Virus record (IMG/VR): IMGVR_UViG_3300001507_000013
DNA: 18,257 bases
Source of the DNA: a virus
Direction: 5' to 3' (one strand)
The position numbers and the translations under genes are program-made. This document shows, one piece after another, positions 4,831 to 17,576 of this stretch; position 1 is the first letter of the stretch, and every line of letters begins with the position of its first letter. The notes beneath the pieces are model-generated. The model searched no databases and was not told the origin of the DNA. It was given only the letters and a program-made list of their open reading frames with translations.

Positions 4831-4854
4831 GTTTTTTGATTAGAGGTGTAGAAC

Positions 4855-7146
4855 ATGGGATTATTAGAAGCAATGCAAAAACATAAAGGTCAAAAAAATT
4901 TATATCTTTATTGGGATATTGAAACATTAAACTATAATAAGGTAGCAGGAAGAGAAAAACCAACTAAATATAAAAATGTGACTTATAGTCTTGCTATTGG
5001 TTGGTATGACGGACAACATATTGATGTTGAAGTTTTTCCTAGTTTTAAAGCCTTTTATCAATCTTTTTTTGATTACGCCTCAAGACGTGATACGATTACG
5101 AAATCACAAACTACTATTAATATGATTGCACATAACTGTAATAAATACGATAATCATTTTTTACTTCACGATACAAAATATTATTTTAGTGATGATTTAG
5201 TGATAGAAAATTTATTTATGAAAAGTGCAGAAGATAACGAAAATACAATTAATATGAATGAAGCAAAATTATTATCAAAAGAAACAAATGTTATTTTAGA
5301 AAAACGTGTTAAATCAAGTATCAATTTAGATTTAATGATGTATTTAAAAGGATTTAAATTTAATATTATAGATAATTTTATGAAAACAAATACATCAATC
5401 GCTACATTAGGTAAAAAGCTCAAAGACGGTGGTTATATTAGTGAAGATGAATTAAAAACTGATTTTCAATATGATGTGTTTGATGTAGAACATGATATGA
5501 CAGATACACAAGCCTATGATTATGCTTATGAATGTTTTCATCAACTTACAGAATCACAAATGACCTATATTAGAAACGATGTCATTATTTTAGGTATGTG
5601 CCACATACATTATAGTGATATATTCCCTAATTTTGATTATAGTGCAATGACCTTTAGTGTTAATATTATGAAAAGTTATATCAATAATGAAACAACACGC
5701 TTACAATTATTAAACCAAAAAGGAAAGCAAAAAATATCATACACAGATTTTACTTTTTTTGATATGAATTTTTATGACTTTATTAAGGGTTTTTATCGTG
5801 GTGGATTAAATATGTATAATTCACGTTATGTTGATAAAATCATCAATGAGGAATGTTTTTCAATAGACATAAATAGTAGTTATCCCTATGTGATGTATCA
5901 TGAAAAATTACCGATGTATATTTATGATTTTGATGAATATGAACAACCGACAACGATACACATTGATTTAACCAATAAAGATTATTTTTCACTTTATAAA
6001 ATGGATAAGGTCACATTTAATCGTACTATTTTAAGAAATATTGAAAGTGATTTAATTAAGCAATGTCTTGTTAAATACTACAATAATGACAAAAAGTTTG
6101 TTAATATAAATACAAACACTTTACGCATGATTGAAGATTTAACGGGTTTAACTTTTGACAAAATAAAAGTGTTTGCTTTTGTGTGCTATGAATGTGAATA
6201 CTTTGGCGCTCGTGATATTATTCATCATAATTATTTCATCAAAACGCAAGGTAAATTAGATAAAAAAATCATTATGGATTCACCCTATAATTACACGATC
6301 ACTGATGAAGTCAATACACATACTTATTCAAAAGAAGAAATCATGTTAAGTAAAGTTGTTTTAAATGGTCTGTATGGTATACCTGCTTTACGGTCACATT
6401 TTAATTTGTTTAGACGTGATGAGGACGGTTTTTTAGTTAACCATGAAAATGGATATAAAAACAGTGAACGTAATTTATTATTTTCTACTTTTGTGACATC
6501 ACAAGCCCTTTATAATTTACTTGAACCATTAAAGTCTCTAACACAATCTGAAATAGATGACTGCTTTATATATTGTGATACTGACAGTTTATATTTAAAA
6601 TCAAAAATTAAACATAAATTAAATGATGAATTATTTGACCCTATTGCATTAGGTAAGTGGGATATAGAAAATCATGTCATTAAAAAAATGTATGTACTCA
6701 ATCATAAAAAGTACGCCTACCAAAAAGAAGATAACACAATTAAAATTGCCAGTGCAGGTATTCCATTAGACGCATTTAATAAGAATCAATCTTTTGAAAA
6801 TTTTATTAAAAATGATTTTCACCATAAAGCAATTGTGTATAACAATAAATCCATTTATAACGAACAAAAAACAATATCTATTTACCCGTCAAAAACATAT
6901 ATTGAAAAAGGTACGCCTTATGATTATTATTTCACTAAAGAATTAGAGGATAGAAAAGAAGATGTATTAAAACAAGCAAGACGTGAATATGATGATGTCA
7001 ATGACGATGATATATTATACATTGAAAGTGATGTTGGCGCATTTTCATTTAGTGATCTATTTCCTTATCAATTTGAAATTAAAAATAAATGTGATATTAA
7101 TATTTTATATATGGTTCATCAAGATATAAAAAATGACGCTACATGA
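4855..7146 (+). CDS. Protein-primed family-B DNA polymerase, 763 aa
   Basis: Exo I YWDIET, Exo II HNCNKYDNHF, Exo III YIRNDV, motif A DINSSYPY, motif B KVVLNGLYG, motif C YCDTDS and a KKY motif, all in canonical order. GAGGTG RBS. Confidence 0.95.
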   Translation: MGLLEAMQKHKGQKNLYLYWDIETLNYNKVAGREKPTKYKNVTYSLAIGWYDGQHIDVEVFPSFKAFYQSFFDYASRRDTITKSQTTINMIAHNCNKYDNHFLLHDTKYYFSDDLVIENLFMKSAEDNENTINMNEAKLLSKETNVILEKRVKSSINLDLMMYLKGFKFNIIDNFMKTNTSIATLGKKLKDGGYISEDELKTDFQYDVFDVEHDMTDTQAYDYAYECFHQLTESQMTYIRNDVIILGMCHIHYSDIFPNFDYSAMTFSVNIMKSYINNETTRLQLLNQKGKQKISYTDFTFFDMNFYDFIKGFYRGGLNMYNSRYVDKIINEECFSIDINSSYPYVMYHEKLPMYIYDFDEYEQPTTIHIDLTNKDYFSLYKMDKVTFNRTILRNIESDLIKQCLVKYYNNDKKFVNINTNTLRMIEDLTGLTFDKIKVFAFVCYECEYFGARDIIHHNYFIKTQGKLDKKIIMDSPYNYTITDEVNTHTYSKEEIMLSKVVLNGLYGIPALRSHFNLFRRDEDGFLVNHENGYKNSERNLLFSTFVTSQALYNLLEPLKSLTQSEIDDCFIYCDTDSLYLKSKIKHKLNDELFDPIALGKWDIENHVIKKMYVLNHKKYAYQKEDNTIKIASAGIPLDAFNKNQSFENFIKNDFHHKAIVYNNKSIYNEQKTISIYPSKTYIEKGTPYDYYFTKELEDRKEDVLKQARREYDDVNDDDILYIESDVGAFSFSDLFPYQFEIKNKCDINILYMVHQDIKNDAT

Positions 7147-7237
7147 TAGTAGCGTCTTTTTTTACGAGGTATAGTGACAAGTGACGTTTGCCATACGGAT
7201 TATGTTTTGTTGTTTATTTACTAGAATGTTCTAGCAT
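7128..7237 (-). ncRNA. Candidate small RNA of about 110 nt, from the 7244-7272 promoter to the bidirectional terminator
   Basis: A promoter-like element and an intrinsic terminator bracket a non-coding stretch. It holds a 5' hairpin CTAGAA-CA-TTCTAG and a GTCAC-TT-GTCAC direct repeat. The only ORF is 7 codons with no RBS. Confidence 0.25.
7135..7163. terminator. Bidirectional rho-independent terminator at the convergence point of the two arms
   Basis: GACGCTAC (7135-7142), 6-nt loop, GTAGCGTC (7149-7156). T7 follows on the + strand (7157-7163). A-T6 follows on the - strand (7134-7128). The polymerase stop codon is in the loop. Confidence 0.7.
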
Positions 7238-7243
7238 ACTTAT

Positions 7244-7272
7244 ATTATAGCATAATTTTTACTTAATGCCAC
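7244..7272 (-). promoter_or_regulatory. Candidate leftward promoter: GTGGCA, 17-nt spacer, TGcTATAAT
   Basis: On the - strand, GTGGCA is at 7272-7267, TG at 7252-7251 and TATAAT at 7249-7244. It lies at or after the stop of the last late gene and points into the intergenic gap. Confidence 0.4.
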
Positions 7273-8680
7273 TAAAAAACATAATATTATCCCCTGCATT
7301 TTCAGGTACACCGTCAATTAATGTATATTCAACAACACGACTCGGAGCCCAATACGGTGGCACGTTATAATTGGCTACTAAAAATGAACCGTCTTTGAAT
7401 ACTGCTACTACGACACCCGTATGTCCGACACCGGGTAATGAGGCTTGTAAATAAGGGGGTTTACTACTAAATCCATAGCCAACTGTTGGTCGGTGTGTGA
7501 CACGTGCACCACGATTACGATAAACCACCCACACACGTTGACCATTTGTAACTTGACCGTCGTCGGCAGGTTGAACTTTTCCATGTAATTGTGTCATATA
7601 ACACTGTGTCAATTCTGTACATTGACCTGTATTACCAAAACGTGGGAATGTATTCCCACTATTATTTAGATAACTAGGTTTAAATAGTGGCACGTCAATA
7701 GCGTCTTTATATTTTTGTGGTAATTGAGAATAAGTCCAGTTACCACCAATCACACGACCATTTTTTCCGTTTGGTGCAACTGATTTACCCCCTTTATCTG
7801 CGCCACCCTCACTATCATCGGCACCTGTATCTTTTCCACCACCCCCGTCGATTCTTGATATTAAGTCTTTCATTTCATCAAGTAATTTTTGATTCATATT
7901 TAAACGATAGGTGTTATTGTATGTTTTTGTAATGGTAAACATCTGATTAGAAAAAAATTTATCAGTACCAATAGAGTGCAAATCCCACTGCATACTGTCT
8001 TGTAATTTTTTAAGAAATTCCTCAAAGGCACGTGCGACAACATCAAGCCCACCACTAGAGCCACTAGAACTACTTGAACCACTGCTTGAACCTCCTTTTC
8101 CGTCTATTTTACCACCCCACGCGAGTATGGTGTTTGAAGCGTCTAAGAATGGATTTCCATAAGTTTGTACCCTATTATAACTAGCTTGTAACCCCTCAGG
8201 ATAATAAGCAGCCCAAGTTGCTGCAGCTGTTAATGGAATATAGGCACGACCGACTTTTCCATTTTTCATATTATGAGAAAAATCATAATTTCCTTTTGCT
8301 TTTACACTTGCAGGCACAAAGTCTACGGGATTTCCTGCGTCAATCCACGAGGGTGTACCTGCTTGACGAGATTGAGAAACAAGTTTACGTGCAACAAATT
8401 GTGCGTCTGATAAATAATTACCCTGTGGTGTTGTATGGTTAAGCCAACCCCAACTACCATTATAGCCCTCATTTTTTTCATAAGCACTAAATAATGCAGG
8501 TGATACCCCAATGCTTTTAACTGCACTCAAGACCTGCCTAATTTTACCTGAATCATTACCACACCATGCTTGAAATCGTCCTATGCCTTTGACTTTAGGT
8601 ACTAAATCATCAACACTTAATCCAAAATCATCATTTAAGTTAGAATGTATAAACTTGTCAATTTTTTCTTTATCATTCAT
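7259..8680 (-). CDS. Tail-associated peptidoglycan hydrolase (tail tip/spike lysin), 473 aa: N-terminal glycosidase-like domain, middle domain, C-terminal CHAP peptidase
   Basis: CHAP signature: NTGQCTEL (Cys), GVGHTGVV (His), ANYN. Two Gly/Ser-rich linkers (GGSSSGSSSSSGSSGG and DGGGGKDTGADDSEGGADKGG). It is the last late gene next to the holin, as for the P68-type tail spike. The N-terminal domain call is tentative. Confidence 0.8.
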   Translation of the reverse strand: MNDKEKIDKFIHSNLNDDFGLSVDDLVPKVKGIGRFQAWCGNDSGKIRQVLSAVKSIGVSPALFSAYEKNEGYNGSWGWLNHTTPQGNYLSDAQFVARKLVSQSRQAGTPSWIDAGNPVDFVPASVKAKGNYDFSHNMKNGKVGRAYIPLTAAATWAAYYPEGLQASYNRVQTYGNPFLDASNTILAWGGKIDGKGGSSSGSSSSSGSSGGLDVVARAFEEFLKKLQDSMQWDLHSIGTDKFFSNQMFTITKTYNNTYRLNMNQKLLDEMKDLISRIDGGGGKDTGADDSEGGADKGGKSVAPNGKNGRVIGGNWTYSQLPQKYKDAIDVPLFKPSYLNNSGNTFPRFGNTGQCTELTQCYMTQLHGKVQPADDGQVTNGQRVWVVYRNRGARVTHRPTVGYGFSSKPPYLQASLPGVGHTGVVVAVFKDGSFLVANYNVPPYWAPSRVVEYTLIDGVPENAGDNIMFFSGIK

Positions 8681-16358: not shown

Positions 16359-17576
16359 TTATTCTGTTGCACCTGCGTCAGGTTGTTCCTTTGGTGCTTC
16401 TGTAATTAAGATTTTATTAAAGAATGGTGAGATAGCTTTGAATGAGTAATAATGAATCCAGTGTGTAACCTCATCAAATTCACCATTATAAAATGGTTCT
16501 TTTAACATGCCTTTAGTATTACGTTTATATTTAAGTGCATTAATATCAAAAATAAACGCAAACAATTCACCCTGTGGCTTGATTTCTTCAATGTTTCCTT
16601 TAAATTCTTTTAAATCAGATACATTAAATGTAAATACTGAACCAGTAGGGATAACATCACCAATCATAGCTTGATAATCACCAAAAGCACGTAAATAATT
16701 GATTGTATCTTCATTTGCTAAAGTAACATCTTTTGTTGTTTTATATACACCACCTAAATCATCAAAACTGATGATATGGTCTGTGAAGTCAATGCCTGCC
16801 ATTTGGAAAGTATTCGCAATTTTTGTATCAAGTAAATATGACTTAAGTGAATCAGTTGTTAAAATTGCAATATCACTTAATTTTGAAACAGTAGTATATT
16901 GACCTACTGAACCACCTGACGCTTTGTGTACTTCATTGTATTTTGCACTATTATTTTGCATATTTAAAATTGCTTCAAATACACGTTCTGTTAAATCTTC
17001 TTTTGATGAAGCAGTACGACGATTTGAATCTTGCAATTGATTAATTGCATAATCAACCATCATTGCACGTATTTCTTTTTCTTCTTGAACGTTAATATCT
17101 GAAATCTTTTTACGTAATACACCTAAAGCGTAATTTGTAGCGTCACCTAATGTTTGGAAATTAAAACGTACATCATTATTATTTAATGTGAATTTTTGTT
17201 TTTTAACAATTCCTGAACCATATAAACGTGTTGCCATTTGTGGATAATTACGTTTTAACATTAATTCTTCTGATTTAGATAAATTCATTTCAATTGGAAT
17301 TGTATCCATAATCACGTATTCTTCAGAATATTGTCCGATAAAGTCTTGTTCTTTTGCTAACCAGTTGAAACGATTTCCTAAAGCAATGTCAATCAATAAT
17401 GTTTCATTGATTTTAGGGAATAGGTATTTATTTACATATGTTTCAAACATTGTATTTACGTTTGACCAATTCTCACCAAAAGTCCATTGTTTACCATAAT
17501 CATGGTTAAAATCTTGTAATGACGCTTTTGTAGAATCTGCAATTAAAGTTGGTATATCTGTTTTTTTATCTGCCAT
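16359..17576 (-). CDS. Major capsid protein, 405 aa
   Basis: AGGAGGAT RBS. Position and size match the major capsid protein of P68-type phages (about 400 aa). Confidence 0.8.
   Translation of the reverse strand: MADKKTDIPTLIADSTKASLQDFNHDYGKQWTFGENWSNVNTMFETYVNKYLFPKINETLLIDIALGNRFNWLAKEQDFIGQYSEEYVIMDTIPIEMNLSKSEELMLKRNYPQMATRLYGSGIVKKQKFTLNNNDVRFNFQTLGDATNYALGVLRKKISDINVQEEKEIRAMMVDYAINQLQDSNRRTASSKEDLTERVFEAILNMQNNSAKYNEVHKASGGSVGQYTTVSKLSDIAILTTDSLKSYLLDTKIANTFQMAGIDFTDHIISFDDLGGVYKTTKDVTLANEDTINYLRAFGDYQAMIGDVIPTGSVFTFNVSDLKEFKGNIEEIKPQGELFAFIFDINALKYKRNTKGMLKEPFYNGEFDEVTHWIHYYSFKAISPFFNKILITEAPKEQPDAGATE

Follow-up and report, generated by a model that had tools for sequence, protein, structure and literature searches.

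In the window, by which we mean the whole 18,257-nt stretch of Staphylococcus phage DNA that was analysed, the tail-lysin gene, which is the last late gene, and the DNA polymerase gene converge on a short intergenic gap. A sequence-only reading had proposed that the − strand of this gap holds a self-contained promoter-to-terminator unit encoding a small RNA. All sequence features named in that reading are in place, and the features that bear on our analysis are the following.

7147-7258: convergent intergenic gap of 112 nt between the tail-lysin and polymerase genes
7272-7267, − strand: −35-like hexamer GTGGCA, matching TTGACA at 4/6 positions, inside the last tail-lysin codons
7252-7244, − strand: extended −10 TGCTATAAT (TGcTATAAT), with a 17-nt spacer to the −35-like hexamer
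7128-7237, − strand: predicted small RNA of 110 nt, from the A of an invariant AUG (7 nt past the −10) to the end of the U-tract
7219-7236, − strand: 5′-terminal hairpin UGCUAGAA-CA-UUCUAGUA, beginning at RNA nt 2 and containing CUAGAA-CA-UUCUAG (7234-7221)
7198-7219, − strand: conserved unpaired core AAAUAAA-CAAC-AAAACAUAAUC, 22 nt, shared with staphylococcal siphoviruses
7169-7196, − strand: central hairpin GUA-U-GGCAA-ACGUCAC-UUGUC-ACUA-UAC, in Andhravirus only
7185-7174, − strand: repeat GUCAC-UU-GUCAC, seen in the sequence
7157-7174, − strand: CU-rich, anti-Shine-Dalgarno-like segment CUAUACCUC followed by an A-tract, complementary to GAGGUGUAG
7156-7135, − strand: bidirectional intrinsic terminator GACGCUAC-UAUCAU-GUAGCGUC, with an 8-bp stem and a 6-nt loop
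7134-7128, − strand: terminator U-tract, A-U6, seen in the sequence
4843-4851, + strand: candidate target GAGGUGUAG, the ribosome-binding site of the DNA polymerase gene, identified by complementarity
2964-2972, + strand: candidate target GAGGUGUAG, the ribosome-binding site of the gp7-like terminal protein gene, identified by complementarity

The promoter had been described as lying right after the stop codon of the last late gene. Its elements are there, but its position has to be corrected: the tail-lysin stop codon (7261-7259) falls within the promoter spacer, and the promoter overlaps the end of the gene, with the −35 hexamer in codons, where its conservation is confounded by lysin coding constraint (…FSGIK*). 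The sequence TGnTATAAT is invariant in 33/33 relatives checked (Andhravirus, Rosenblumvirus, and DSP1); the N of this element (C/T/A) varies among the same relatives, as do the upstream spacer and the 6-nt discriminator, and sequence conservation resumes exactly at the predicted +1 (AUGYUAG). Promoter-like sites are not enriched in the window (133 found compared to 126 expected in shuffled sequence), and TGNTATAAT occurs 5 times compared to 3.3 expected. Thus, conservation of TGnTATAAT, rather than the frequency of such sites, raises the promoter-to-terminator unit above chance. All 5 TGNTATAAT sites are oriented along the transcription of their own arm, and three of the other four precede genes (polymerase, tail knob, and first late gene). 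In the distant picovirus contigs L032–L034, the gap sequence is unrelated to that of the window, and a TTGACC-17-TGTTACAAT or TTGACC-17-TGGTATAAT promoter lies directly after the last late gene, aimed into the gap. These comparisons support a predicted promoter belonging to the unit itself and conserved as a promoter, as expected for an independently transcribed small RNA.

The predicted RNA folds with an energy of −26.7 kcal/mol (z = −4.7). Homologous units are 104–113 nt in Andhravirus and Rosenblumvirus and 89 nt in DSP1. Within Andhravirus, gap identity is 97–100%, whereas identity of the adjoining lysin gene falls to 77–88% relative to Andhra; compared to Rosenblumvirus SLPW, the gap forms a local peak of identity, at 0.78–0.82 versus 0.6–0.7 in the flanks. 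The sole − strand open reading frame in the gap has 7 codons (MLEHSSK), and from one relative to the next, open reading frames on either strand change in length and frame, which bears out the earlier statement that the unit has no plausible coding sequence. These differences, together with a spacer of 3–8 nt within the A-rich motif, indicate that the RNA is non-coding. A − strand peptide starting at the invariant AUG was considered and rejected, since its reading frame ranges from 4 to >35 codons among relatives. On the + strand, an open reading frame beginning MFC(Y/I)LF… initially appeared conserved. The + strand peptide (MFCCLFTRMF in the window, with MFC(Y/I)LF… elsewhere, including siphoviruses) was also rejected, because the 3–8 nt spacers are non-triplet and the peptide is absent in DSP1. 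Comparison across the subfamily therefore supports the proposed independent, non-coding promoter-to-terminator unit of ~110 nt as a prediction from sequence, and it is the only conserved non-coding transcription unit found in the genome. The genome records and papers on staphylococcal picoviruses that we consulted contain no annotation of an RNA gene, and we found no transcriptome of these phages in the literature.

Minimum-free-energy and centroid folds of 13 representatives consist of a 5′ hairpin, 20–55 unpaired nucleotides, an optional small hairpin, and the terminator. The 5′ hairpin stem, UGCUAG/CUAGUA, is kept in all lineages around loops of 2–7 nt that vary in sequence. Its covariation is weak (a single double compensatory change, in DSP1; 67/500 shuffles), and this hairpin is conserved mainly as sequence. 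The CTAG…CTAG dyad is unlikely to be a protein operator, as its half-site spacing ranges from 2 to 7 nt. For the Andhravirus alignment, 98.6% of cells are paired, 0/500 shuffles were as good, and 8 pairs show double changes, all of them from one divergent genome, Ph36. Three of these double changes fall in the inner helix of the central hairpin, where pairing is kept and L017/L019 carry one-sided changes, and 5 fall in the terminator stem, which is 100% paired across Andhravirus. Rosenblumvirus and DSP1 have terminator stems that differ from the Andhravirus stem, and the central hairpin is missing from their folds. Covariation across related phages, put forward earlier as a check, thus upholds the central hairpin and the terminator and gives a weak result for the 5′ hairpin. 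An intrinsic terminator with covarying stems at a near-fixed distance is a further property expected of an independent small RNA. Read on the + strand, the same terminator closes the transcript of the polymerase gene, whose stop codon (7144-7146) it overlaps. The GUCAC-UU-GUCAC repeat noted in the sequence-only reading is present but not conserved, reading CGAUACUUGUCAC in several relatives, and was dropped as a meaningful element.

Two features of the RNA are reported here for the first time: the complementarity of CUAUACCUC to GAGGUGUAG at ribosome-binding sites, and a core shared with siphoviruses. The window contains just two copies of GAGGUGUAG / GAGGTGTAG, one at the terminal-protein ribosome-binding site and one at that of the polymerase gene, and the only one-mismatch relatives of GAGGTGTAG are in the small RNA gene itself and at a site near the first late gene. 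Predicted pairing of CUAUACCUC with these two ribosome-binding sites, at −15.4 kcal/mol each, ranks as the top two among 20 translation-initiation regions. Among non-self partners in the early arm, the polymerase initiation region scores best, with z-scores of −3.3 in the window, −4.0 in Ph36, and −4.3 in DSP1. Values of −3 to −4 are modest, however, and any stretch containing CCUC will give a score with a Shine-Dalgarno site. Pairing of this kind is predicted for the window, Ph36, and DSP1, and in Andhra for the terminal-protein site alone; in Rosenblumvirus SLPW, it is not clearly retained, with the polymerase initiation region in fifth place or lower among partners. It had also been suggested that the RNA acts on the 3′ end of the polymerase gene, but the basis for this idea is only the overlap that any bidirectional terminator makes, and the complementarity lies instead at the polymerase and terminal-protein ribosome-binding sites.

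The 22-nt core at 7198-7219 is unpaired in the minimum-free-energy and centroid folds of all lineages and near-invariant in picoviruses, and thus has the predicted properties of the conserved unpaired seed of a trans-acting small RNA. Staphylococcal siphoviruses (from S. epidermidis, S. aureus, S. chromogenes, S. pseudintermedius, and S. delphini) have an unannotated hairpin-motif-terminator module with the same conserved core, AAAUAAA-N3-8-AAAACAUAAUC, located between the late activator gene (ltr) and terS/HNH and always in the sense orientation relative to the activator gene and terS. Searches of six siphovirus module loci against Rfam gave no match, and comparison of picovirus early genes with siphovirus regulators using PHROGs and Pfam gave no common proteins. 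A scan of representative genome contigs for the exact motif returned 47 matches, all in non-Staphylococcus genera, which look like chance, and a search of a plasmid collection for the motif or its complement returned phage-like elements only. Within the phage, the A-rich motif has only 11-nt complements (1525-1535 in gp5; terminal repeats), a level expected by chance, and these were not retained as targets.

The motif has the CAU form in every phage of S. aureus, S. epidermidis, and S. chromogenes that was examined; the S. pseudintermedius picovirus DSP1, an S. delphini element, and three siphoviruses of S. pseudintermedius carry CAA. CAA therefore replaces CAU in both morphotypes among phages of the S. 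intermedius group, a host-linked difference that involves only two or three independent phage lineages and could instead have arisen by recombination between phages of one host. The complement of the motif reads GAUU-AUG-UUUU for the CAU form and GAUU-UUG-UUUU for the CAA form, a difference that raises the possibility that the motif covers the start codon of a host gene, AUG or UUG according to clade. It is conceivable, although we think it unlikely, that the 22-nt motif serves as a seed directed at the host, which unrelated phages of staphylococci, both picoviruses and several siphovirus genera, have placed independently in small terminator-bounded RNAs and tuned to the host clade; its target may then be the start codon of a single conserved host gene, reading AUG or UUG according to clade, that both phage types silence. 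The corresponding host sites would read GAUUAUGUUUU or GAUUUUGUUUU, with UUUAUUU 3–8 nt downstream.

Several other explanations of the locus have to be weighed. The sequence-only reading had raised an analogue of the phi29 prohead RNA (pRNA), and here the results are negative. A cmscan search of the whole window against Rfam at E ≤ 10 gave 8 weak matches, with 0 to pRNA (RF00044) and 0 in 7128-7272. Neither a helix joining the 5′ and 3′ ends nor a three-way junction is present in the minimum-free-energy and centroid folds of the 13 representatives, and inspection revealed no conserved loop-to-loop complementarity, as the loops of 2–7 nt vary with no matching change elsewhere. The unit, at 7128-7272 of the 18,257-bp genome, lies on the late strand in the convergent gap rather than at a genome end; the phi29 pRNA gene is at 147–320 bp, near the left genome end, and a review describes pRNA as known only from Bacillus phi29-like phages. 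A phi29-type packaging RNA was rejected on the basis of the Rfam scan and folding. A functional analogue bridging the packaging ATPase and the portal would suit phages that package protein-primed monomeric genomes by a phi29-like strategy, for which no pRNA has been described and whose one conserved non-coding unit is this one, and its mode of docking would not be predictable, as the packaging ATPase has no sequence match among solved structures. We nevertheless regard such an analogue as extremely improbable, because over half of the sequence outside the terminator is unpaired, the central hairpin is dispensed with in Rosenblumvirus and DSP1, and the best-conserved part is a single-stranded motif common to terminase-packaging siphoviruses that need no pRNA. 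This clear negative concerns the RNA and does not settle whether Rountreeviridae use a packaging RNA.

A more serious contender, although still an unlikely one, is that the gap contains no separate gene and simply comprises the 3′ UTR of the late operon and the zone where its transcription terminates, with a promoter-like box of little or no activity and conserved parts that act in cis (3′-end stability, processing, or termination between convergent operons). Late transcripts must cross this sequence to reach the sole terminator, the siphovirus motif likewise sits just before the terminator ending the transcription unit of the activator gene, and promoter-like hexamers are common in an AT-rich genome. 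Against this idea, an invariant TG and TATAAT with a free N and variable neighbours is the pattern of a working extended −10, conservation begins exactly where transcription is predicted to start, and L032–L034, with an unrelated gap, again have a promoter after the last late gene. If the promoter is active, it might mainly drive antisense transcription, with read-through into the polymerase gene silencing early genes by antisense pairing or polymerase collision; only polymerase gene antisense lies downstream, and the interrupted − strand U-tract (A-U6) of this phage could weaken termination. The 8-bp stem is G+C-rich, many relatives have an uninterrupted U7, and antisense transcription would leave the constant RNA length and selection on the internal motifs unexplained, so that we judge it very improbable. 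Alternatively, the A-rich motif could be a DNA site for a host or phage protein (a bent, UP-like, or nucleoid protein site) shared with the region upstream of siphovirus late promoters, the RNA being incidental. In related phages, a terminator and an activator-dependent late promoter have been placed in the ltr–terS region, and late starts mapped in phi11, 80alpha, and phi55 lie 23–28 nt before terS. By analogy with these phages, we infer that the siphovirus motif lies ~55–75 bp upstream of the late start, which makes a DNA-level role possible there. This region is reported to be highly similar between phages with RinA proteins of differing specificity, which fits such a site, and the host-clade variant also fits a host DNA-binding protein. 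A spacing of 3–8 nt between the motif halves, however, shifts helical phasing and is hard to fit to a double-stranded site, in both phage types the motif invariably occupies the transcribed strand, with a hairpin before it and a terminator after it, and the picovirus has no promoter downstream of it. We therefore consider a DNA site improbable.

The reading that we prefer, with moderate confidence, is that the gap is a gene for a ~110-nt non-coding RNA that is conserved in staphylococcal picoviruses (Rakietenvirinae) and acts in trans as a base-pairing regulator, rather than as a phi29-type packaging RNA. Host sigma-A RNA polymerase would start at the extended −10 promoter overlapping the end of the last late gene and stop at the terminator shared with the polymerase gene, and late-operon transcripts would end at the same terminator, carrying the small RNA sequence as their 3′ UTR. 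One segment, the CU-rich stretch with its A-tract, would base-pair at the ribosome-binding sites of two phage mRNAs, those for the terminal protein and the DNA polymerase, and lower their translation. The other, the A-rich 22-nt stretch, differs between host clades and for this reason would most likely address a partner encoded by the host. The 17–18 kb genomes of staphylococcal picoviruses (P68, 44AHJD, Andhra, and relatives) are regarded as fully understood, which makes these phages leading candidates for phage therapy; a conserved small RNA would be an additional regulator in them. Should this RNA act at the ribosome-binding sites of the terminal-protein and polymerase genes, it would provide a simple device for limiting or timing the synthesis of replication proteins. 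A motif that is common to siphoviruses and varies with host clade points to a common host-side partner, which would link the picovirus RNA to an unexplained control region upstream of siphovirus terS.

Like phi29 pRNA, the picovirus RNA is predicted to be a small non-coding RNA with a host-type promoter, encoded by a small podophage that uses protein priming and infects a Gram-positive host, and to be the sole RNA gene of its genome. In contrast to the compact three-way junction of phi29 pRNA, which is closed by a 5′/3′ helix, the picovirus RNA is mostly unpaired, and its conserved part is a single-stranded motif. With the siphovirus ltr–terS module it shares AAAUAAA-N3-8-AAAACA(U/A)AAUC, unpaired and on the transcribed strand, preceded by a hairpin and followed by an intrinsic terminator, with the same host-linked CAU/CAA variant. 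The terminator begins 4–5 nt past the motif in the siphovirus module but 41 nt past it in the picovirus RNA, and the siphovirus module precedes packaging genes, whereas the picovirus unit is flanked by lysin and polymerase genes. Thus, the two have the motif in common but are distinct elements; the siphovirus module also lacks the CU-rich segment, and its flanks are unrelated to the picovirus RNA. Type I 3′-UTR small RNAs of enterobacteria, such as DapZ and MicL, have their own promoter in or at the end of the upstream gene and share the operon terminator. The picovirus RNA resembles them in a predicted promoter that overlaps the 3′ end of the preceding gene, co-linearity with a 3′ UTR, a shared intrinsic terminator, and a conserved unpaired seed; it differs in being phage-encoded in a Gram-positive host, in having two candidate seeds, and in a bidirectional terminator shared with a convergent essential gene. 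Staphylococcal small RNAs such as RNAIII and RsaE pair with Shine-Dalgarno sequences through C-rich motifs, and the picovirus RNA likewise has an unpaired pyrimidine-rich stretch (ACCUC / CACCU) that complements GGAGG-type ribosome-binding sites, with pairing extended to GAGGUGUAG of two replication genes. Its motif is CUAUACCUC rather than UCCC, and its candidate targets are the phage's own genes.

The 18,257-bp record represents a complete Andhravirus genome (Rountreeviridae, Rakietenvirinae) from a picovirus of Staphylococcus epidermidis. Its identity is 96–100% with SeAlphi, S-CoN_Ph28/30, St 134, and BESEP3 and 92–97% with Andhra. Early genes on the + strand end with the DNA polymerase (4855–7146), late genes on the − strand run from the right end to the tail-tip lysin (8680–7259), and a 112-nt gap separates these convergent arms. 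The − strand of this gap carries a candidate unit for a 110-nt RNA (sRNA, 7128–7237) with the following elements.

7272–7267, − strand: −35-like GTGGCA
17 nt, − strand: spacer between GTGGCA and the −10
7252–7244, − strand: extended −10, TGCTATAAT
7234–7221, − strand: hairpin CUAGAA-CA-UUCUAG
7185–7174, − strand: GUCAC-UU-GUCAC
7156–7135: bidirectional terminator, with A-U6 next on the − strand

All elements named in the sequence-only reading (promoter, 5′ hairpin, GUCAC repeat, and bidirectional terminator with A-U6) are present, and the sole reading frame in the unit is the 7-codon ORF that it described. Its placement of the promoter right after the lysin stop holds for the −10, which lies past the stop, but not for the −35, which is inside the last lysin codons, with the stop codon within the spacer. 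Considered alone, such a unit would not be surprising; promoter-like hexamer pairs are equally common in shuffled sequence (133 observed versus 126). The sequence TGNTATAAT occurs five times in the window (1539, 4822, 7244, 10919, and 18175) compared to 3.3 expected, each time oriented along transcription of its own arm. Three of the four other copies directly precede genes (polymerase, tail knob, and first late gene), and at least four sites are just upstream of a gene or the sRNA. This orientation and placement suggest that the extended −10 is the standard promoter type of the phage.

Homologous gaps were gathered from 33 phages and viral contigs, covering Andhravirus, Rosenblumvirus of S. 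aureus (SLPW, 66, SA46-CTH2, and others), and the S. pseudintermedius picovirus DSP1. TG and TATAAT were invariant in all 33, with C, T, or A as the N of TGn, whereas the stretch from the stop codon to the −10 took at least six forms and the six positions 3′ of the −10 were variable as well. Conserved sequence restarts at AUGYUAG, whose A is 7 nt past the −10, a typical spacing for a transcription start. Measured between this A and the last base of the U-tract, RNA length is 104–113 nt in all lineages but DSP1, where it is 89 nt. Inside Andhravirus the gap is 97–100% identical, whereas the adjacent lysin gene falls to 77–88% versus Andhra. Relative to SLPW, identity peaks locally in the 5′ half of the gap (0.78–0.82, flanks 0.6–0.7), compared to a genome-wide window identity of 0.42 with unaligned bases counted as mismatches. 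The proposal of an independent non-coding unit is supported by this comparison across 33 phages and contigs, with a constant promoter core and near-constant RNA length. We judge the unit a genuine conserved element, most probably a small RNA with transcription of its own.

Three more distant, uncultured picovirus contigs (polymerase 57–59% identical) have a longer convergent gap of 250–400 nt that is unrelated in sequence (L032, 3783–4040; L033, 3777–4200; L034, 3063–3330). An extended −10 promoter (TTGACC-17-TGTTACAAT or TGGTATAAT) straight after their last late gene is aimed at a strong terminator, so a small transcription unit keeps its location even where the sequence differs. These gaps also hold one or two copies of a structured ~80-nt element (GGAGACAUACAG…GAUGUUGACC) with compensatory changes between copies and no Rfam or tRNA match; its 3′ end provides the TTGACC box, and L033 has one copy on either side of the terminator.

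The predicted fold of the window RNA consists, 5′ to 3′, of a hairpin from nt 2, ~22 unpaired bases, a small central hairpin, and an A-tract with the terminator. Its folding energy was −26.7 kcal/mol (z = −4.7); the terminator accounts for most of this signal (z = −1.9 without it). In the Andhravirus alignment, 98.6% of cells were paired and eight pairs changed on both sides, a result reached by 0 of 500 shuffles; the divergent genome Ph36 alone supplies all eight double changes. The 5′ hairpin, with loops of 2–7 nt, is kept chiefly by sequence, with one double change (DSP1; 67 of 500 shuffles). The central hairpin is absent from Rosenblumvirus and DSP1 folds, which leave 40–55 nt unpaired. 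S-CoN_Ph35 (OR354858.1) alone showed a mismatch in the 5′ hairpin and a terminator insertion; its 18.4-kb record lists 73 CDS, polymerase and lysin being broken into many short ORFs, and sequencing errors are likely.

We lean toward a regulator that acts in trans by base pairing through two accessible segments. A purely cis-acting 3′ UTR is unlikely, a DNA-level site more so, and read-through antisense transcription is highly improbable. At the lysin gene end, AUUAUGUUUU (7276–7285, − strand) is complementary to AAAACAUAAU of the unpaired core motif ~65–70 nt downstream, so a long late transcript could fold the motif away, with the short RNA leaving it free.

For the base-pairing regulator, candidate targets are phage ribosome-binding sites. 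The segment GUCACUAUACCUCGUAAAAAAAG is predicted to pair at −15.4 kcal/mol with both the polymerase and terminal-protein initiation regions, the best two of 20 (background −5.9 ± 2.7). These genes (terminal protein gp7-like) share a nearly identical 19–20-nt initiation sequence, UUUUGAUU(A)GAGGUGUAGA (2956–2975 and 4834–4854). The genome contains just two copies of GAGGTGTAG, at 2964–2972 and 4843–4851, within the terminal-protein and polymerase sites, respectively; with one mismatch, it recurs in the sRNA gene and close to the first late gene. In sliding scans of the early arm, the top-ranked non-self partner was the polymerase site in the window (z = −3.3), DSP1 (−4.3), and Ph36 (−4.0); a U-to-C change in Ph36 replaces a G-U with a G-C pair. 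The terminal-protein site ranked second in Andhra. In SLPW, the polymerase site was not among the best partners, and manual alignment gives a possible pairing of another stretch, UACACAUUUUU, with AAAGGUGUGUA. This pairing is suggestive rather than proof, as any CCUC stretch favors Shine-Dalgarno sites.

The sequence-only reading had raised a phi29-type packaging RNA (pRNA), known from Bacillus phi29-like phages only (2024 review). Rfam 15 at E ≤ 10 gave no pRNA match, and no family at all within the unit region; the predicted folds have unpaired ends and no three-way junction, hairpin loops vary without partner changes, and the gene is not at the genome end. These results argue against a pRNA analogue, the least probable reading considered. 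No solved structure matches the packaging ATPase in sequence, so its domains are uninformative either way. The P68 and Andhra structure papers and the Andhra genome paper make no mention of any RNA, and we found no published description of this one in the literature searched. Two coding candidates were rejected: a − strand peptide from the invariant AUG, whose ORF ranges from 4 to >35 codons among relatives, and a + strand ORF (MFCCLFTRMF here), conserved at first look but broken by 3–8-nt spacers between motif halves and missing in DSP1.

A scan of IMG/VR for the unpaired core (7198–7219, − strand) as AAATAAA-N2-6-AAAACATAATC returned picoviruses, unrelated background, and ~45 contigs of 30–45 kb with a single common context, identified by BLAST as staphylococcal siphoviruses. 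These comprise Rockefellervirus (CNPH82, PH15, CNPx, phiIPLA5/7, 456, BE20, SAP3, and PMBT9), Phietavirus (EW), Coventryvirus (phiSP44-1, SpT152, and SpT252), and circular phage-like elements from S. chromogenes and S. delphini. The exact motif, with 20 specified bases, was absent from Staphylococcus representative genomes, and all 47 matches in 596 Gb fell in genera other than Staphylococcus. The siphovirus site is always an unannotated gap from a RinA/LtrC-type late activator gene (annotated 'transcriptional regulator' or 'sigma 70 factor') to terS or an HNH gene. The motif is on the sense strand, with a hairpin upstream and a strong terminator with a covarying stem 4–5 nt downstream, and stays constant while flanks differ between groups. 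This hairpin, AAAUAAA-N-AAAACA(U/A)AAUC, and terminator module (phage 456 contig L154, 2290–2755; also L117, L203–L208, L328, and L329) has no Rfam family, and its AUGAGU…CUC preceding the motif and its terminator stem are likewise conserved or covarying. The record OR842880.1, 'Xanthomonas phage SU1', matches the motif and terminator of this module at 88% over 51 nt (17219–17267) and may carry a wrong label or wrong sequence.

One motif position follows the host. DSP1 (AAAUAAAAUAUCCCAAAACAAAAUC), S. pseudintermedius siphoviruses (AAAUAAAAUACUCAAAACAAAAUC), and the S. delphini element (AAAUAAAACAUCAAAACAAAAUC) have CAA, whereas CAU is found in all phages examined from S. aureus, S. epidermidis, and S. 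chromogenes, whatever their morphotype; assuming one change per lineage in the 11-mer, the same position and base would coincide by chance ~1 time in 33. This split points to a partner differing between host clades or to segment exchange among phages sharing a host. The motif complement reads GAUU-AUG-UUUU (CAU) or GAUU-UUG-UUUU (CAA), and AUG and UUG are both start codons, which suggests, speculatively, pairing over a start codon. In phi11, 80alpha, and phi55, published work locates a terminator and an activator-dependent late promoter in the activator–terS region, finds this region highly similar between phages differing in activator specificity, and describes activation as seemingly 'more complex' than direct contact.
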